Part shown: piece after piece, positions 54,148 to 61,793 of the stretch
Layout: each line of letters opens with the position of its first letter
Position numbering within the stretch: position 1 is the stretch's first letter
Source: Alphaproteobacteria bacterium
GTDB lineage: Bacteria; Pseudomonadota; Alphaproteobacteria; UBA6615
Assembly: GCA_021774575.1 (NCBI GenBank)
Contig: JAJFIX010000031.1
Coordinates: 28,264-92,263, forward strand
Direction of reading: 5' to 3'
Length of the DNA: 64,000 bases
Notes under the pieces: model-generated
What the model was told of the DNA's origin: nothing
Database searches by the model: none
Seen by the model: the letters and a program-made list of their open reading frames with translations, nothing else
Made by a program: the position numbers and the translations under genes

Positions 54148-54209
54148 TTAGTGCCCATCCCGTTCCAAAGGTCGCAGTCGTCACCAGTTGAACTTTCATT
54201 AATTTACCC

Positions 54210-54228
54210 ATATATCGGCTCGATATAT
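54210..54228. promoter_or_regulatory. AT-rich inverted repeat ATATATCG-gct-CGATATAT, a candidate PadR operator
   Basis: Perfect 8-bp arms about 60 bp upstream of the padR start, in the divergent padR/TRAP intergenic region. Confidence 0.4.
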
Positions 54229-54473
54229 GCTCGGTTTATATATAGGCGCTCAGCCAAGGGTCAACATTTAGCTTGGGTAGTCGTCGCAAATAGTAATGAT
54301 ACGTATACGTTGACAAGGATATGGGGCGCCTACAGCCGGTCATAAATCATCGATTTACCTCTTGTGATGTTTTGGGTTAATTTGGCGAATAGTTGGCGAC
54401 ATGAACTAATTTTGCCAATTGCCGAACATGGCGGCAGGAGCCGACGTGTACATATAAGGGAGGATTATTTGTT

Positions 54474-55535
54474 ATGAAAATTTACTCTGCTGTTGCCGCG
54501 GGTACGCTCGCTGCGGCTATGGCCCTGGTCAGCGCGCCAGCGTATGCTCAGGGGCAAAGCCTGATTGCCTCGACCAGCCATCCGCTGGGATTGCCCTGGG
54601 TCGGAACTATCCAAGACTTTTTCATTCCTGAGGTGAACAGCCGGCTGGAAGCCGCTGGCCTTGATCCGATCAGCTGGAATGCCCAATTCCCCTTGCCGGG
54701 TTTGCCACCGACCGGCGTTCTCGAGACTTTGGAAGATGGAACGAATCATTTGTCCTGGGTGGGCACGCTATTTGAACCGCAAAAGATGGGACTTTTGAAC
54801 GTTGCATTTAATGCGCCTTTCGTCACCGACAATACTCTCGATCAACTCGAGGTGTTTAATAGCCTCTATGACCAGTTCCCCGAAATGGGCGCGGTTTGGG
54901 AAGCCAATGGCGCTGTGTTTCTTGGAGCGCAGGCGACGGCATCTTATGAATTGATCACCAATTTTCCGGTCAATTCGATGAACGATTTGGACGGACGCAA
55001 CATCATGTCACCGGGGCCGCAGGCCCAATGGTTGCGTGGCACCGGCGCGGTAATCGCCGACGGTAGTTTGCCCGAGGCCTTCAACTTGCTGCAGACCGGT
55101 GTTGTCGACGGTGTCATTCTGCCTGTGACCAATGCCTTTGCCTTCAAGTTATTTGAAGTTGGGGAGTTTTTGACGCTGATTAATATTGGTGCGCAAACCA
55201 CCGGTGGCTTGGCCATGGGCAAAGAGACATTCGATAGCCTGACACCTGCGGCGCAGGATATTATGCGCGAGGTCGGTCGGGAATGGTCTGGCGTCCATGG
55301 GGCAGTTGTAACCCAGCGTCAGCAAGGAGCACTGGCAAATTGGGAGGCCAACGGCGGTACCGTTACGCGGATTGGCACCGGCGCAAAGGCGGCATGGCTG
55401 AATGCATTGCCGGCTCTTGGGACCGAGTGGGTTGGCCGGAATGCTGCAGCCGGACCGTCTGCGGCAATTTTGAACGCTTATCTCGATGGCATGGCCGCTA
55501 AGGGCCATGAGCCGTTGCGCGATTGGCGCCAATAG
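54474..55535 (+). CDS. TRAP-type transporter periplasmic solute-binding protein (family assignment uncertain)
   Basis: 353 aa with a signal peptide (…AAMALVSAPAYAQ). It sits directly upstream of a fused DctQM permease. It does not carry an obvious canonical DctP or TAXI signature that I can recognise by eye. Confidence 0.6.
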   Translation: MKIYSAVAAGTLAAAMALVSAPAYAQGQSLIASTSHPLGLPWVGTIQDFFIPEVNSRLEAAGLDPISWNAQFPLPGLPPTGVLETLEDGTNHLSWVGTLFEPQKMGLLNVAFNAPFVTDNTLDQLEVFNSLYDQFPEMGAVWEANGAVFLGAQATASYELITNFPVNSMNDLDGRNIMSPGPQAQWLRGTGAVIADGSLPEAFNLLQTGVVDGVILPVTNAFAFKLFEVGEFLTLINIGAQTTGGLAMGKETFDSLTPAAQDIMREVGREWSGVHGAVVTQRQQGALANWEANGGTVTRIGTGAKAAWLNALPALGTEWVGRNAAAGPSAAILNAYLDGMAAKGHEPLRDWRQ

Positions 55536-55665
55536 AGCGACGTCATATTGCCACCTTGCCCTTGAGGCTAGGTGGCAACGAATTGCGGCCGATTGGTCGT
55601 GGGATGGGAGGCGCGGTGCGTCTCCCATTGAATTTATAAGAATATCTTTTGGTAGGTCTCTCGAA

Positions 55666-57804
55666 ATGAGCACAACTCAGGCAGCAACCGATACGCCGCG
55701 CATAGCTGACGATCTCGGTTTAATGCGAGTTTTGCGTAAAATACTTTCAGGCCCGATCACCGTTTCCAATGCCATCGGAACCGTTTGGATCTTTGCCTTA
55801 ATGCTGATGATCGTTGCAGACATTTTGGGCCGGAAGTTTTTCGGCACTCCTGTCCGCGGTGTTGTATTGATCGTTTCTCATTCGATTGTCGGCATTATAT
55901 TTCTTCAAATGGCGTCGAGTCTTGAAGTCGGTCGTATTACCCGGACCAGTGTTTTCATTGGCGGCCTGTTGAAAACCAGGCCTTTTGCCGCGGCTTTTTA
56001 TCAGCTTGTTTTTCACGGTCTTGGCGCCGTGGTGCTTGCCGAAATCGCCTACTGGACCTGGCCGAAGTTAGAAAAAGCTTGGAATACGGGTGAATGGGAA
56101 GGAGCGGCTAATGATGTCGTACTTCTCGTTTGGCCGCTTAAGGCCATCATTGTATTCGGTGCCTCGGCAACGGCACTACAATTTCTCCGCTTGGCTATTC
56201 GCGACGTTGCCGTACTTGTTACCGGCGTGCCCCAAGACCCGAGCGCCCCCAAAGACGCGCCCAAGGGATGGATGGCAATAACATTTTTGATCTTCGGGAT
56301 CCTACTTGTTTCACTGTTGGCGATGAATTCCGACGGACTAACCAATTTGCAAATCGGTATGATTTCCGTTGGTGCGATGTTGATGCTGATTTATTCAGGC
56401 ATGCATATTGCGATCGCTTTATTGTTACTCTCAATTGGCGGCAGTGCGGTCATCTTTGACGGCGCCGTGGTCCTTGCAATGAAGCAGATGGCCGGTGTCA
56501 CTAATACGGCTGTCGGTAATTTCACCTTCGGCGTTGTCCCGCTATTTGTTCTCACAGGCTTACTCGTCAGCGCGGCTGATTTCGGGCGCGAGGCGTTTGA
56601 AGTTGCGGAATGGATATTTGGTAAAATCGTTGGCGGGTTGGGGGTCGCGACCGTTGCGGCCAATGCCGTGTTTGCTGCGATTACCGGCGTTTCATTGGCT
56701 TCGGCGGCGGTCTTTACCCGTGTCGCGGTTCCGCCAATGGTCGAGCGTGGGTTTACGACTAAATTTGCCGTTGGTACGGTTGCCGGCAGTTCGGTACTCG
56801 GCATGTTGATCCCACCAAGTTTACTGCTCATCATTTATGGAATTGTCACCGAAGCGTCGGTTGGCAAATTGTTTCTCGCGGCCATTATTCCCGGCATCGT
56901 ATTGGCTACGGCTTTTGCCGTGATGATCATTCTGCTCGCCAAATTCATGCCAAACTTTGTTGGGGTCGAGGCACCCGAGCATAAACGCAAGCGGCTGGAA
57001 GCCGAAAAAGACGGCAATTTGGATCCGATGAGCAAAGCTGGTGTGGCGTTACTAGCCGGATGGCCGTTGCGTTTGACCGTTGGGCCGTCCGGTGCGGTAA
57101 AATTGCTCGGCGCACTCGTCAAGCTCACCCCAATTTTATTGCTGATGCTAATCGTCCTTGGCGGTATCTATGGCGGGTATTTCTCACCGACCGAGGCTGG
57201 GGCAGCCGGTGCATTCGCCGCTTTGGTCATCGCCCTCATAAAGCGACGGCTGACCTGGAAATCGTTTTGGGAAGTGATGTTGCAGACCGGGCATATCGCC
57301 ACCGGTGTTCTGTTCTTGATTACTGCATCGATGTTTTACGCACAATTTCTAGCGCGCAGCGGTTTGCCTGGTTTTATCATGGGCTTTGTGACGAATTCTG
57401 ATTTCGGGCTGGTCGGCCTCATCCTAGCGTACATGGTCGTGTTGTTGATCTTGGGAATGATTCTCGATCCCATTTCGATCGTACTCATCACCGTTCCGAT
57501 GATCTATCCGGCAATTGTTCAGGGCGGTGGCGATCTGATTTGGTTTGGCATCGTGACCATCATTGCCGTCGAAGCCGGTCTGCTGACGCCACCTCTCGGG
57601 CTGACCGTCTTTGTTGTTCAGGGGATAATGGGCGACGAACATGTCACTGTGCCCGAAGTCTTCCGAGGCGCCTTTCCCTACGTCATAACGATGATTCTGG
57701 TGCTCTTATTGCTGATCAGTCAGGAATGCATAAGCTTGGTCATGCTCGAGCGCGAAGGGGCGGCATGCCGCGAAGTCTTTGCCGGTTGGTTTGGGCGCGG
57801 TTAA
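55666..57804 (+). CDS. TRAP transporter fused small/large permease (DctQ-DctM fusion)
   Basis: N-terminal DctQ-like 4-TM region followed by a DctM-like 12-TM region (…GGLGVATVAANAVFAAITGVSLASAAVFTRVAVPPMVERG…). Start set at MSTTQ (55666). Confidence 0.8.
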   Translation: MSTTQAATDTPRIADDLGLMRVLRKILSGPITVSNAIGTVWIFALMLMIVADILGRKFFGTPVRGVVLIVSHSIVGIIFLQMASSLEVGRITRTSVFIGGLLKTRPFAAAFYQLVFHGLGAVVLAEIAYWTWPKLEKAWNTGEWEGAANDVVLLVWPLKAIIVFGASATALQFLRLAIRDVAVLVTGVPQDPSAPKDAPKGWMAITFLIFGILLVSLLAMNSDGLTNLQIGMISVGAMLMLIYSGMHIAIALLLLSIGGSAVIFDGAVVLAMKQMAGVTNTAVGNFTFGVVPLFVLTGLLVSAADFGREAFEVAEWIFGKIVGGLGVATVAANAVFAAITGVSLASAAVFTRVAVPPMVERGFTTKFAVGTVAGSSVLGMLIPPSLLLIIYGIVTEASVGKLFLAAIIPGIVLATAFAVMIILLAKFMPNFVGVEAPEHKRKRLEAEKDGNLDPMSKAGVALLAGWPLRLTVGPSGAVKLLGALVKLTPILLLMLIVLGGIYGGYFSPTEAGAAGAFAALVIALIKRRLTWKSFWEVMLQTGHIATGVLFLITASMFYAQFLARSGLPGFIMGFVTNSDFGLVGLILAYMVVLLILGMILDPISIVLITVPMIYPAIVQGGGDLIWFGIVTIIAVEAGLLTPPLGLTVFVVQGIMGDEHVTVPEVFRGAFPYVITMILVLLLLISQECISLVMLEREGAACREVFAGWFGRG

Positions 57805-57825
57805 TCAAGTTAGAGGAATAGATTT

Positions 57826-58638
57826 ATGGGTATGCTCGACGGCAAGAAAATTGTCGTTACCGGCGGGGCCAGCGGTATTGGTCGCGCCACATGTGTTCTT
57901 GCCGCGACGGAAGGCGCAGATGTTGCCGTTGCCGACATAGATCTGGAACGTGCCGCTGAAACCGCCGAACTCGTTCGGGCCGCCGGCGGAACGGCGATCA
58001 CGATTGAAATCGATACGTCGAAGAAAGCTGATGCGGATCGTATGGTGGCGGAGACCCTTGCTGCATTTGGAACCATTGACGGGATCGTGTGCGGAGCGAT
58101 CAAATTGGTTCCAGGCAAATTAGAGGAATTGCCCGAAGAAGATTGGGACATGGTGATTGATATTGGGCTTAAAGGTTATTTTCTCTGTGCCCAAGCGGCC
58201 GGCCGAGTGATGTTGGACAAAGGCGCCGGGTCAATCGTCTTCTTATCTTCGGTCGGTGGCGTGCAGGCCTATAATGGGGCAGGGGCCTATTCCATAGCAA
58301 AAGCCGGTGCGATCATGTTGGGCAAGCTATTCGGTGTTGAATGGGGGGGCAGGGGCGTGCGCGCCAATACAGTTTGCCCCGGCCAAATTCGAACCCCGAT
58401 GACCGAGGCAATGTTTGCCGATCCTGAAATCGCCGCAGGCAGAGCCGCCGTCGTTCCGATGGGGCGGGTCGGTTTGCCCGAGGAAATTGCCGAGGCATGC
58501 GTGTTTCTGCTTTCGGACCGGGCGAGCTACGTCAATGCCGACAGCATGCAGGTCGATGGCGGCCAGGCGGAAAGCAAAATGATGCACACGCCAGGACGCA
58601 ATTGGGGCGGCAAAAAAATGGATTATTCGACGAATTGA
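57826..58638 (+). CDS. SDR-family oxidoreductase
   Basis: TGGASGIG cofactor motif and a YxxxK catalytic motif (YSIAKAG). Confidence 0.9.
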   Translation: MGMLDGKKIVVTGGASGIGRATCVLAATEGADVAVADIDLERAAETAELVRAAGGTAITIEIDTSKKADADRMVAETLAAFGTIDGIVCGAIKLVPGKLEELPEEDWDMVIDIGLKGYFLCAQAAGRVMLDKGAGSIVFLSSVGGVQAYNGAGAYSIAKAGAIMLGKLFGVEWGGRGVRANTVCPGQIRTPMTEAMFADPEIAAGRAAVVPMGRVGLPEEIAEACVFLLSDRASYVNADSMQVDGGQAESKMMHTPGRNWGGKKMDYSTN

Positions 58639-58651
58639 AGAGGGCAACCTG

Positions 58652-59431
58652 ATGGGACGGTTTGAAGGTAAAGTCTGCATTGTGACCGGTGGTGCGAGCG
58701 GCATCGGGGCAAAGACGGCGGAAATGTTTGTCGAGCAAGGCGGGTGTGTCGTCGTTACTGACGTTAACGATGCGGCGGGCGAGAAATTAGTTGGCGATAT
58801 TGGGGCAAGCAAAGCGGCTTATTTACACCTCGATGTTACCGACCCGGACGCCTGCCAGGCAGGTGTCGACTTGGCTGTCGAGAAATTTGGCAGCGTCGAT
58901 TACCTGCTCAATTCGGCAGTGAAAATGGCACCGGGAATGCTTAAGGATCTTTCCTTGGCCGACTGGAACACGATGGTCAACATCGGTTTGACCGGCTCTT
59001 TTTTGATGACACAGGCCGTCGGAAATTGGTTGATAGAGAACGAACGACCGGGGTCAGTTGTGATGATGTCTTCGATTGGTGGGCGCCAGCCTTATGGCAT
59101 GTCGGGTGCCTATTCGACGGTCAAGGCGGCGGTAAAAATGCTGGCAGATCATTTCGGCATCGAGTGGGGCGGGTATAATATCCGGGTCAATTCAATCGTC
59201 GCCGGTCATATCGAGACACCGCTGACGGCTTACTTGAAGGACCCAGAAATCAAGCGCGGTCGCAGCGAAGTAACGCCCCTCGGCCGGGTCGGTCAGCCGG
59301 TCGATATTGCCAATGCGGTTTTGTTTCTTTTTTCCGACGAAGCCGATTATGTGACGGCAACAGCGCTCAATGTTGATGGGGGCATAACGCGCAGCGTCAT
59401 GAACCACATGCCCGGCCGCAAGTGGAGCTAG
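58652..59431 (+). CDS. SDR-family oxidoreductase
   Basis: TGGASGIG motif and a YSTVKAA catalytic motif. Confidence 0.9.
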   Translation: MGRFEGKVCIVTGGASGIGAKTAEMFVEQGGCVVVTDVNDAAGEKLVGDIGASKAAYLHLDVTDPDACQAGVDLAVEKFGSVDYLLNSAVKMAPGMLKDLSLADWNTMVNIGLTGSFLMTQAVGNWLIENERPGSVVMMSSIGGRQPYGMSGAYSTVKAAVKMLADHFGIEWGGYNIRVNSIVAGHIETPLTAYLKDPEIKRGRSEVTPLGRVGQPVDIANAVLFLFSDEADYVTATALNVDGGITRSVMNHMPGRKWS

Positions 59432-60255
59432 CAGCAGTGAGTTCGCGCCAACCAGCCGGATACAGCTGAACTAACCGCAGCCTCTTGGCCGACATAGAAG
59501 TGACCGCAATTTTCGATAATCTCAACATCGCAGGGACCCGAACATTTTTCCGCAAATTCATCGGCTGGGTAAATATCGTCGGACTCCTCGTCGCCTTTAA
59601 GAAAAAGCACAGGGCAGGAAATTTTTTCCGCCCAGTCCAAAATTCCGGGCACCGAAGTCATGAAATCGACCGCACTTTGTGCGCCAATGACCCGCCACCA
59701 CCCGTCCAACAGTAATAAATCGCGTGGGCGTCCGGCGGCTATACTGGTCACCGCGCGCGCAGCAATTTTGTCATAGTCTGCACCGGCCCAATTTCCGGCG
59801 GCGCTGATCTTTGCAGCGATATCAGTTCCGCCCGCATGGGCCGAAAGCAAAATCAGGGCCGGTGTGTCGGAATGGTCTGCTGTGTAGCGCACCCCCAGCA
59901 TTCCGCCATTGCTGTGGCCGATGACGATTGGCGAACCAAATCCTTTGGCGCGCAGCCATTCCCCGGCCGTTATATTATCCGCCATAGCTTCGGCTGCTGT
60001 TTGGTAGGCGCCGCCTTCCAATTCACGGCTATCGCGGGTCGATAGGACATCGTGCCCACGTCGATTAAAGGCGAGGCAAGCAAAACCCATCTGGGTCAAA
60101 ATAGGTGGCAGGAAACGCGGCGCACCAACATAAAAATTCATGCAATTGCCATGCATCAGCATGACGGTGCCGCGAATTTCACCATCATCGGGTTCATAAT
60201 AGGCGCCGTCCAGCGGAACCGTGTCGGTTCCAATGGAGACCAATTCGGTCCGCAT
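59428..60255 (-). CDS. Alpha/beta-fold hydrolase
   Basis: 275 aa with a GHSNGG nucleophile elbow. It is 17 nt downstream of the nitrile-hydratase alpha-like gene on the same strand. Confidence 0.7.
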   Translation of the reverse strand: MRTELVSIGTDTVPLDGAYYEPDDGEIRGTVMLMHGNCMNFYVGAPRFLPPILTQMGFACLAFNRRGHDVLSTRDSRELEGGAYQTAAEAMADNITAGEWLRAKGFGSPIVIGHSNGGMLGVRYTADHSDTPALILLSAHAGGTDIAAKISAAGNWAGADYDKIAARAVTSIAAGRPRDLLLLDGWWRVIGAQSAVDFMTSVPGILDWAEKISCPVLFLKGDEESDDIYPADEFAEKCSGPCDVEIIENCGHFYVGQEAAVSSAVSGWLARTHCC

Positions 60256-60272: not shown

Positions 60273-60908
60273 TTATTCTAAGACAGTGGGCAATGTCACG
60301 CCAACCATGGCATCGCGGGTAATAATCTCTTCCAACTGTGCTTCGCTCCAGCCTTGCGTCCCCTCGGGGCGCATTGGAATGACGACGTAGCGCATATCGG
60401 CATTGCTATCATGTACCCGCAGCGTCACGTCATCAGAAAGTTGGGTGCCGAATTCCGCCAGCACGGGGCGCGGTTCGACAACGACGCGCTTGCGATAGTT
60501 ATCGGATTTGTACCAAGTCGGTGGTTGCCCGAGGAGGTGCCGGGGATAGCAGGAGCATAGAGTACAAACGATCACGTTATGAATTTCGGGAGTGTTTTCG
60601 ACGGCGACGAGCTGGTCGGTTTCCAGGTCAATCCCCATGGAGGCAACTGCCGCCTTGCCGTCGCGCAGCAGGAATTTTTTAAATGCGGGGTCGGTCCAGG
60701 CCCGTGCAATTACTTTCGCGCCGCGATTTGGATAATCGGACTCAAAGGCCTCCATGGTCGCCCTGACCTCATCCGCCGTCATCACCCCTTGGTCGATCAG
60801 CAGTTCCTGCATTGCCCGGCTCATGATTTCGTATTCGCTCGGCACACCGTCTCTCTGGCCGGCAGTTTGATGAGGATGTTGGTGATCGTCGACGTGATTA
60901 TTTACCAT
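60273..60908 (-). CDS. Nitrile hydratase alpha-subunit-like protein, cobalt-type metal centre (or thiocyanate hydrolase gamma-like)
   Basis: 211 aa carrying VCTLCSCYP, the Cys-Thr-Leu-Cys-Ser-Cys claw of Co-type NHase alpha. The flanking sequence (…WYKSDNYRKRVV…, …RYVVIPMRPEGT…) matches the NHase alpha fold. Confidence 0.85.
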   Translation of the reverse strand: MVNNHVDDHQHPHQTAGQRDGVPSEYEIMSRAMQELLIDQGVMTADEVRATMEAFESDYPNRGAKVIARAWTDPAFKKFLLRDGKAAVASMGIDLETDQLVAVENTPEIHNVIVCTLCSCYPRHLLGQPPTWYKSDNYRKRVVVEPRPVLAEFGTQLSDDVTLRVHDSNADMRYVVIPMRPEGTQGWSEAQLEEIITRDAMVGVTLPTVLE

Positions 60909-61254
60909 TGGATTTTTCGCTCCCTTCGGCCCGCTCTTCAGCTTGATTGAGCCAATGCTCGTAGATTTCCAACTCTATCGTGTCGTATTGCGGACCGGCG
61001 TAAGTTGGCCAGACATGAGTTTGCGAGAATCGAACTCGGTAGAGAATGCGTTCGGGCAGTCCGTCTTCACCATAGGCCCTGGTTTCCGGGTCTGGAAAGG
61101 CGCCACAAATGCGCTCGATCTCCCCGCTTTTGCCTCGAATATAATAGGGCACCCGACAGTGACCCGCCGGATAACCGATTTGCACGGTTACACTATCACC
61201 GACGTCGAATTTTCGGTTGGGGGCTGGGCGGTAGGTTGAGGTCGCACCGGTCAT
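60898..61254 (-). CDS. Nitrile hydratase beta-subunit C-terminal-half homologue (SCNase-alpha / ToyL-like small subunit)
   Basis: 118 aa (…FDVGDSVTVQ…GHCRVPYYIRGKSGEIERICGAF…ILYRVRF…) resembling the C-terminal beta-barrel domain of NHase beta. Confidence 0.75.
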   Translation of the reverse strand: MTGATSTYRPAPNRKFDVGDSVTVQIGYPAGHCRVPYYIRGKSGEIERICGAFPDPETRAYGEDGLPERILYRVRFSQTHVWPTYAGPQYDTIELEIYEHWLNQAEERAEGSEKSNGK

Positions 61255-61632
61255 CTAGCTTGCTCTATTTTTCGATTGGCCCGTCGCAAACCTGGCCCTG
61301 ACAACTTCCATCTTTTCATCCAGTTCGGCCTGGGTGAAAGTCCCTTTTTCGATAAGGAGATTGCGGATCGCCTTTGTTGTTCGTTCAAAATAGCTGAGCC
61401 GGTAATAATCGGGTAAATCCTCGGCCGCCCGCCGCATCTCATCAAGTGCAGAGATCCCCTTGGCGACCATCACCATACGCATACCATTTGCCTGTTTTTC
61501 CCAAAACAGCATGCCGTGATCTCTGGTGTCGATGGGGCCAGCATCGGCACTACTCACATCGCCCCCCATATCATGGGCACGGGGGGCGTGGGGGCCATCT
61601 TCGGCAGTGGGACCGTGCTTAGGGGTTTTCAT
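61255..61632 (-). CDS. Nitrile hydratase beta-subunit N-terminal-half homologue (SCNase-beta / ToyK-like small subunit)
   Basis: 125 aa (…HDMGGDV…GPIDTRDHGMLFWEKQANGM…DYYRLSYFERTTKAIRNLLIEKG…) resembling the N-terminal helical domain of NHase beta. Confidence 0.75.
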   Translation of the reverse strand: MKTPKHGPTAEDGPHAPRAHDMGGDVSSADAGPIDTRDHGMLFWEKQANGMRMVMVAKGISALDEMRRAAEDLPDYYRLSYFERTTKAIRNLLIEKGTFTQAELDEKMEVVRARFATGQSKNRAS

Positions 61633-61732
61633 GATTTATCGTCCTCGTGTGCGTGCAACATGACCGGTTCCCACGATAGCGAATTTATTCGCCCTTGTAG
61701 AAATTGAATTATGTAGAATATGTATTTTGGCA

Positions 61733-61762
61733 TAAAAAACCCCCCGGCGTTATCGCCGGGGG
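61733..61762 (-). terminator. Rho-independent terminator after the Gfo/Idh/MocA gene, insulating it from the NHase-like operon
   Basis: Minus-strand hairpin CCCCCGGCG-ATAA-CGCCGGGGG followed by TTTTTTAT. Confidence 0.8.
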
Positions 61763-61793
61763 TCAAATCAAGCTAACCGCCTGTATGTCAGGG

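Follow-up and report, generated by a model that had tools for sequence, protein, structure and literature searches.

Canonical cobalt-type nitrile hydratases (Co-NHases), such as those of Pseudonocardia thermophila (1IRE) and Pseudomonas putida (3QXE), contain a beta subunit made of a single polypeptide and are usually encoded together with an activator and often with an amidase. In the nitrile hydratase (NHase) of Streptomyces canus CGMCC 13662 (ScNHase) the beta subunit is divided over two small proteins, AnhD and AnhE, which represent its N- and C-terminal fragments and are encoded in the order anhD-anhE-anhA (PMC7329996; Guo et al., 2019, 2020; see also PMC13243292). ScNHase contains cobalt, which is inserted without an activator, no activator gene being present; it requires both small subunits, forms an AnhD2E2A2 complex, and AnhD has been proposed to act as a subunit-swapping chaperone (PMC7329996). 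Toyocamycin NHase (TNHase; ToyJKL) forms an (alpha-beta-gamma)2 hexamer from subunits of 21.2, 10, and 11.4 kDa (PMC8574189), also without an activator (PMC12648386), and its alpha subunit alone can, according to the citation of Nelp et al. (2014) in PMC7329996, assemble the metal site. Here we examine a stretch of 64,000 nucleotides (the window) from Alphaproteobacteria bacterium (assembly GCA_021774575.1, contig JAJFIX010000031.1, positions 28,264 to 92,263), in which three consecutive open reading frames (ORFs) in the interval 60273-61632, transcribed in the order betaN-betaC-alpha, resemble these systems. We put the probability at about 0.75 that they encode a functional Co-type NHase of the three-polypeptide kind, within a predicted operon that starts past a terminator and comprises betaN, betaC, alpha and a hydrolase gene. 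Judged from its sequence, the enzyme is a new member of the known three-subunit, activator-free Co-type NHases, and the large clade to which it belongs includes thiocyanate hydrolase (SCNase) as well.

Comparison with Described Systems

With ScNHase the window shares the split beta subunit, the gene order and the absence of an activator, a likeness of architecture; the ScNHase paper and its supplement (PMC7329996) contain no sequences. ScNHase comes from an actinomycete, its subunits are smaller (10.4, 11.4, and 21.3 kDa vs. 14.0, 13.4, and 23.7 kDa in the window), and, unlike in the window, no downstream alpha/beta hydrolase or tripartite ATP-independent periplasmic (TRAP) transporter context has been reported for it. 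ToyJKL of Streptomyces rimosus likewise has three subunits, two small ones (~10-11 kDa) taking the place of beta, and no activator, but it lies inside a deazapurine antibiotic cluster and acts on a nucleoside, whereas no such cluster was found among the ORFs of the window that were scanned. The SCNase of Thiobacillus thioparus (ScnB/ScnA/ScnC, PDB 2DD4) is split at an equivalent point, and its order scnB-scnA-scnC corresponds to betaN-betaC-alpha. Its gamma subunit and the alpha subunit of the window both contain CTLCSCYPR, with an Arg three residues beyond the last cysteine of the metal motif (Cys+3) and then LGQ, and fall on the same side of the alpha tree. SCNase differs in its chemistry, the hydrolysis of SCN- to carbonyl sulfide (COS) and NH3; furthermore, its gamma subunit has a 12-residue insertion that the window alpha lacks, its beta-Arg90 aligns with Met66 of betaN, a position that is not conserved in the window family, and the SCNase-like loci L088, L089, L099, L100, and L104 possess a P15K-like fourth gene which is missing from the window.

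The canonical Co-NHases have the alpha fold, the VCTLCSCY motif and both beta arginines in common with the window, and presumably also the chemistry, but differ from it in their undivided beta subunit, a Trp at Cys+3, and the activator and amidase genes mentioned above. The eukaryote-type NHases, in which beta and alpha are fused (Monosiga brevicollis; Marron et al., 2012; PMC3323583), resemble the window in the absence of an activator and in a His-rich segment before alpha; they represent the opposite architecture, with everything in one chain, and the residue at Cys+3 varies (R, T, or A). Fused proteins of this type, of 370-540 aa, occur among the nearest betaC relatives.

An earlier note on this DNA, made from the letters and their ORFs, had named SCNase and toyocamycin NHase as the only three-subunit relatives, both with specialized substrates. 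ScNHase is a third characterized one, and it hydrates ordinary nitriles (acetamiprid, thiacloprid, and benzonitrile; PMC7329996), so that the list was incomplete. The kinship with SCNase that the note suspected is real and closer than could then be seen, both enzymes having an active-site Arg.

Two Halves of One Beta Subunit

All three ORFs were found on the minus strand, in the order that the earlier note had given. betaN (61632..61255; 125 aa, 14.0 kDa) matches the Pfam family PF21006 (NHase_beta_N) with an E-value of 9.1e-16 over profile positions 4-101 of 115, and betaC (61254..60898; 118 aa, 13.4 kDa) matches PF02211 (NHase_beta_C) with an E-value of 3.3e-20 over positions 8-97 of 98. On TIGR03888, the single beta model of NCBIfam (226 positions), betaN spans positions 4-101 and betaC positions 130-226, and the two are therefore collinear halves of one beta subunit, i.e., the N-terminal (helical) and the C-terminal (beta-barrel) half that had been recognized by eye. 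A lack of significant similarity in profile searches had been named beforehand as the result that would speak against this assignment; the similarity is significant, and the Pfam E-values of betaN, betaC, and alpha rule out chance matches.

The functional residues are in place in both halves. betaN contains the start motif HDMGG (residues 20-24), DEMRR (64-68) and SYFER (80-84); its DEMR aligns with DEYR/DEFR of solved beta chains, and Arg67 is the canonical Arg that contacts the oxidized cysteines. betaC contains GHCRVPYYIRG (31-41), the GHCR of which aligns with GHTR of 3QYG_B, Arg34 being the second conserved Arg. Across 81-85 family members, D64, E65, R67, and R68 of betaN and G31-H32-x-R34 and R40-G41 of betaC are conserved at a level of at least 95%. 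The best solved match of betaN is the beta subunit of the Comamonas NHase (4fm4_B; E 4.7e-9), betaC matches residues 117-217 of the beta subunit of the P. putida Co-NHase (3qyg_B; E 2.3e-14), and the solved-structure matches of betaN, betaC, and alpha are exclusively NHase or SCNase chains.

The TAG stop codon of betaN directly abuts the ATG of betaC in the same reading frame (61252-61257), and a single base change at this junction would restore an unsplit beta of 244 aa. betaC overlaps alpha by 11 nt. Shine-Dalgarno sequences are found for betaN (GAGGA, 9 nt upstream of the start) and alpha (AGGGAG), that of betaC is weak, and translation of betaC may rely on termination-reinitiation.

The Alpha Subunit and Its Metal Site

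The alpha gene (60908..60273, minus strand) encodes a protein of 211 aa (23.7 kDa), the predicted catalytic, metal-binding subunit, which matches PF02979 (NHase_alpha) over its full length (E 4.2e-79, 264.7 bits). It passes TIGR01323, the NCBI equivalog model for NHase alpha (259.2 bits; cut-off 249.85), and fails TIGR03887, the equivalog model for SCNase gamma (224 bits; cut-off 291.45), on which a true SCNase gamma (L089) reaches 399.7 bits. It is 48% identical to PtNHase alpha, 51% to ReNHase alpha, and 44% to a true SCNase gamma. The motif VCTLCSCYP, which had led the earlier note to propose a Co-type alpha subunit, occupies residues 114-122 (V114-C115-T-L-C118-S119-C120-Y-P-R123) and is conserved at a level of at least 95% in 85 relatives. 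Thr and Tyr in the metal motif are a mark of cobalt NHases, and Thr116 and Tyr121 of the window alpha match this signature. The N-terminus is His-rich (HVDDHQHPHQ), with H5 and H9 conserved in at least 80% of the family alignment; that it helps to capture the metal is speculative. No P15K- or activator-like ORF was encountered in the window or in loci L001-L087 when these were searched with SCNase P15K-like proteins, the matches in the relatives being betaN itself.

Conservation of the Split

A genome survey, with one genome per species, yielded 479 loci with a relative of alpha, the best 80 of which (64-75% identity) were examined; nearly all of these belong to Burkholderiales or are betaproteobacterial metagenome-assembled genomes (MAGs). 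In each of the 72 loci that hold both halves, betaN and betaC are two ORFs in the order betaN-betaC-alpha and in different frames, mostly with a 4-nt ATGA overlap. The same two-ORF arrangement occurs in closer relatives from metagenomes (L082-L087), whose betaN is 60-79% identical to that of the window. Relatives with an intact single beta gene, which the earlier note had thought of as the observation that would unmask the split as a local interruption, were thus found neither among these 72 loci nor in L082-L087. The frames of betaN and betaC always differ in the relatives, the same-frame TAG/ATG junction occurring in the window alone, and betaC aligns with its relatives from residue 1. Furthermore, where the synonymous rate (dS) is unsaturated, dN/dS against the relatives is 0.07-0.20 for betaC, alpha, and the hydrolase, a sign of purifying selection, and a public read set yielded an identical sequence in an independent assembly (L081). 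By these comparisons the in-frame junction is a peculiarity of the window genome and not the result of recent breakage, and the locus is real and conserved and the enzyme very probably functional.

Stand-alone halves are also common in wider collections. In the protein collection betaN has 127 homologues, most of which stand alone and measure ~119 aa. When betaC was compared exhaustively with 1.84 billion cluster representatives, 1232 matched; of the best 150, 121 stand alone and are no longer than 135 aa, and only four have normal beta length. The betaN halves P0040, P0098, and P0119 are labeled "hypothetical protein" at NCBI, while the adjacent alpha is labeled "nitrile hydratase subunit alpha." The same split may be present in the alphaproteobacterium Roseobacter sp. 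CCS2, whose beta subunit "appeared truncated" to Marron et al. (2012; PMC3323583) and was exchanged for another in their data.

Arg at Cys+3 and the Phylogeny of Alpha

Comparison of a 44-aa fragment of alpha with solved structures revealed that CTLCSCYPR..LGQ is common to the window alpha and SCNase gamma, where canonical enzymes have CYPW..LGL. By this alignment Arg123 of alpha (window ~60540-60542) corresponds to gamma-Arg136 of SCNase. The selectivity of SCNase is reported to be controlled by two pocket arginines, gamma-Arg136 and beta-Arg90 (Yamanaka et al., 2013). In line with this, two variant structures differ in score from the wild type over the same fragment, 3VYG_C by 4 bits less and 3VYH_A by 3.8 bits more. 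A 42-aa fragment of SCNase gamma had no match in the protein collection; with a 49-aa fragment 80 further metagenome loci were gathered, some of which are true SCNases.

The resulting set of 156 alphas (loci L001-L167) includes two partial solved-structure sequences as canonical references. In 140 alphas, true SCNases among them, an Arg occupies Cys+3, and their beta subunits are non-canonical: 114 have three separate ORFs, five have an unsplit beta, three have betaN fused to alpha, and the rest are cut by contig ends. Where enough of the contig is present to judge, the 15 alphas with a Trp at this position, PtNHase and ReNHase included, are accompanied by an unsplit beta; L162 is an apparent exception. 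Across the superfamily, the replacement of Trp by Arg next to the metal site goes together with the split beta. No description of this link was found in the searchable literature (CSCYPR motif, gamma-Arg136, and surveys of split-beta NHases).

In a neighbor-joining tree of these alphas, which is rough and the sampling of which is biased by the search patterns, the Trp group is separated by one bipartition from the split-beta/Arg clade (86/100 bootstraps). The alpha phylogeny that the earlier note had proposed thus places the window inside the split-beta/Arg clade. The window groups with L082 and L084 (99/100), this group joins the Burkholderiales group (90/100), and the SCNase-like group (99/100) is separate from the window. 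Within a large, diverse clade the split-beta arrangement betaN-betaC-alpha prevails, and it is common in environmental bacteria. The earlier note had suggested that the enzyme may be an uncharacterized member of the superfamily; its novelty was overstated, since the split is common (114 of 140 alphas; 121 of the best 150 betaC clusters) and ScNHase, with the same gene order, has been characterized.

Some architectural variants were observed. In L116 (3269-4300), L121 (3239-4595), and L131 (3182-4309) betaN is fused to alpha via a His/Asp-rich linker, and in L121 betaC is encoded 3' of alpha. In L099, L100, L102, L104, L105, and L108 the alpha passes the SCNase gamma model (L100 with 386.6 bits), the beta is a single unsplit ORF and a P15K-like ORF follows; the metal motif of L099, L100, and L104 reads CALCSC, with Ala for Thr.

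Genomic Context

A hairpin resembling an intrinsic terminator (61762..61741, minus strand; nine G-C pairs followed by a T run) lies 3' of a GFO/IDH/MocA oxidoreductase gene and 5' of betaN. Downstream, 17 nt separate the alpha stop codon from the start of a gene for an alpha/beta-fold serine hydrolase (60255..59428, minus strand; 275 aa; Abhydrolase_1/6 and Hydrolase_4 in Pfam), which is probably the last gene of the NHase operon. Because of the hairpin before betaN and the proximity of the hydrolase gene to alpha, the transcription unit is most likely betaN-betaC-alpha-hydrolase. The hydrolase has an HG oxyanion motif (35-36), GHS115NG, Asp222, and His252, so that the set Ser115/Asp222/His252 is intact, and it also follows alpha in L082, L083, and L084 (68-70% identity). 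It is a candidate for a partner enzyme that cleaves amides or esters; searches of solved structures and of NCBIfam returned nothing that would name its function.

The surroundings of the operon further contain genes for a PadR regulator, an RND pump, a TRAP transporter, two short-chain dehydrogenases/reductases (SDRs), and a Zn-ADH-type oxidoreductase; the TRAP transporter and oxidoreductases listed as neighbors in the earlier note were recovered with Pfam matches. The TRAP and SDR genes (54474..59431), all on the plus strand, are convergent with the NHase operon and encode DctP (54474-55535), the DctQ and DctM domains in one 772-aa ORF (55486-57804), and two paralogous SDR dehydrogenases (57826-58638 and 58652-59431). 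The listed start of the DctQM ORF overlaps the end of DctP by 50 nt; the gene caller gives two genes, of 126 and 569 aa, in L082. The solved-structure search with DctP returned remote TRAP binding proteins alone, and with NCBIfam the SDRs, DctP, and the ORFs of unknown function could not be named more specifically.

L082, the nearest relative on a long contig, has the same order of neighbors at 60-88% protein identity, with SDR2, SDR1, DctQM, and DctP in the same order at 75-88% identity. Between DctP and PadR it encodes a signature amidase (L082:9653-11053; NF004815, 617 bits). The 64-kb window contains no amidase, a 327-nt gap (54148-54473) being found at the corresponding position, and no signature amidase was seen near the split-clade loci except in L082. 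The distant Burkholderiales loci are without the TRAP, SDR, and hydrolase neighbors of the window; in 18 of ~73 loci of this group the gene directly next to the operon encodes a TctC-type binding protein. We do not take the co-occurrence of SDR genes in Burkholderiales as a sign of a functional link, as these are only 25-35% identical to the SDRs of the window and SDR genes are abundant. Genes of the HupE/UreJ family (Ni/Co permeases) stand beside the operon in 12 related loci (L004-L057; e.g., L019:4477-5256), which fits a cobalt enzyme.

Two ORFs without a family match were noted beside related operons. Directly 3' of alpha, 11 Burkholderiales-type loci (L062-L077; e.g., L070:6566-7813) carry an ORF of ~385-415 aa with 61-69% mutual identity and without a Pfam or NCBIfam match. 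A divergent ORF of ~183-204 aa, also without a family match, lies between the GFO gene and betaN in L082 (1024-1638) and L084 (1972-2523) and is absent from the window (61633-61793).

GC content is uniform over the region, and Rfam and tRNA scans of the window gave no matches. Other genes of the window include lpxD/B, gltA, gltX, pyrG, eno, a fused ispDF, ntrBC-ntrYX, and hflX, as well as those for a pyruvate dehydrogenase complex with a lipoyl domain on E1-beta, a content that fits a housekeeping-rich alphaproteobacterial chromosome.

Proposed Function and Alternative Explanations

By homology with the characterized enzymes, the alpha subunit would bind a non-corrin Co(III) via Cys115, Cys118, and Cys120 and the backbone amides of Ser119 and Cys120, with Cys118 oxidized to a sulfinate and Cys120 to a sulfenate. 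Arg67 of betaN and Arg34 of betaC would hold the oxidized cysteines and, as these arginines reside on separate proteins, both betaN and betaC would be needed for one active site. The sulfenate oxygen is expected to attack the metal-bound nitrile, upon which the amide would leave. The complex is probably (betaN-betaC-alpha)2, by analogy with TNHase and the AnhD2E2A2 complex of ScNHase; cobalt probably enters alpha directly, without an activator, as in ScNHase, and betaN may double as a subunit-swapping chaperone, as reported for AnhD. The Arg at Cys+3 and the adjacent organic-anion transporters may be hints at a small or anionic nitrile, the amide of which would be taken onward by the hydrolase. 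The neighboring genes would at least allow such a route, in which an organic-anion transporter imports the nitrile, the enzyme hydrates it, and the hydrolase processes the product further.

Several points weigh against the interpretation as a functional three-polypeptide Co-type NHase. The same-frame TAG could possibly permit a minor read-through product, i.e., a fused beta of 244 aa, and the pocket Arg that is common to SCNase could possibly point to a substrate other than a nitrile. The assignment of cobalt from the Thr/Tyr signature follows a rule of thumb, and the likeness to ScNHase and ToyJKL is one of architecture. In addition, there is no signature amidase nearby, unlike at many canonical NHase loci.

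The explanation that survives best beside it refines the enzyme class and is no alternative to it. It holds that the enzyme is a hydratase specialized for a nitrile that is anionic (e.g., carboxylate-bearing) or very small, as part of a route dedicated to the uptake and breakdown of this compound, in which the TRAP transporter imports the substrate, Arg123 binds its charge in a role likened to that of gamma-Arg136, which is thought to bind SCN- in SCNase, the hydrolase serves as an unconventional amidase and the SDRs and other oxidoreductases process the product. The Arg, common to SCNase and absent from canonical NHases, is in line with this, as are the hydrolase after alpha in the window and in L082-L084, the TRAP and SDR synteny in L082, where an amidase is present as well, and the TctC-type protein that flanks 18 of ~73 Burkholderiales operons. 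However, the Arg is universal (140 of 140) in a very diverse clade and, if ScNHase and TNHase, which act on neutral nitriles, belong to this clade, an Arg at this position does not necessarily point to an anionic substrate. Synteny was seen only in relatives that are rather close (60-88% identity), where shared ancestry may explain it, Burkholderiales are very rich in TctC and SDR genes, the Burkholderiales SDRs are not orthologous to those of the window (25-35% identity), and DctP has no informative solved relative. We therefore consider such a dedicated route rather unlikely, and we are somewhat more doubtful still about its stronger form, in which the whole subclade would constitute a module dedicated to the catabolism of an anionic or carboxylated nitrile that occurs in nature, with the Arg binding the charge and the hydrolase as a new amidase partner that has replaced the signature amidase.

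That the enzyme is itself a thiocyanate hydrolase, converting SCN- to COS and NH3, is suggested by the same split and gene order, the Arg at Cys+3, and the LGQ that follows. We nevertheless reject it as highly improbable: the alpha, with 224 bits on TIGR03887, remains below the cut-off of the hidden Markov model (291.45) and is 44% identical to gamma, beta-Arg90 is replaced by Met66, the 12-residue gamma insertion and the P15K-like fourth gene are missing, the SCNase-like loci form a separate clade (99/100), and no sulfur-oxidation or COS-handling genes are located nearby. Slightly less probable again is a secondary-metabolite tailoring enzyme like ToyJKL, with which the window enzyme shares three subunits of similar size and the lack of an activator (PMC8574189; PMC12648386). 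No deazapurine or other biosynthetic genes were found among the ORFs scanned, which comprise most large ORFs of the window; the neighbors are transporters, dehydrogenases, and housekeeping genes, and the family is widespread in MAGs of soil and freshwater Burkholderiales, with varied neighbors.

With both halves in one frame and a single TAG between them, one could imagine a canonical beta gene that a nonsense mutation has interrupted not long ago, leaving a pseudogene, or that only seems interrupted because of a sequencing error. This is rejected with hardly any reservation, as the break is found at the same place but in other frames in 72 of 72 loci and in L082-L087, betaC aligns with its relatives from its first residue, both halves are constrained, and the independent assembly L081 is identical. 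NHLP models derive from NHase alpha and cross-match it, and the match of alpha to TIGR03793 (leader_NHLP; 62.9 bits, cut-off 50.9) is the point in favor of the least probable explanation of all, an NHLP precursor of a ribosomal natural product in place of an enzyme, which is rejected in view of the full-length alpha with an intact CTLCSC site, the two beta halves alongside, and the absence of maturation genes for such a product nearby.

Implications

Split-beta NHases seem to constitute a large but little studied family, of which only SCNase, toyocamycin NHase, and one Streptomyces enzyme have been characterized, and in databases "hypothetical protein" is still the label of many N-terminal halves. 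As biocatalysts, cobalt NHases that need no activator have the appeal of simpler expression, and the Arg-for-Trp swap beside the metal site provides a testable handle on substrate selectivity. The gain from this particular locus is modest: it is conserved and encodes a probably active enzyme, and the hydrolase and the transporter suggest where its natural nitrile may be sought. The most useful by-product of this analysis is the clade-wide link between the split beta subunit and the change from Trp to Arg.

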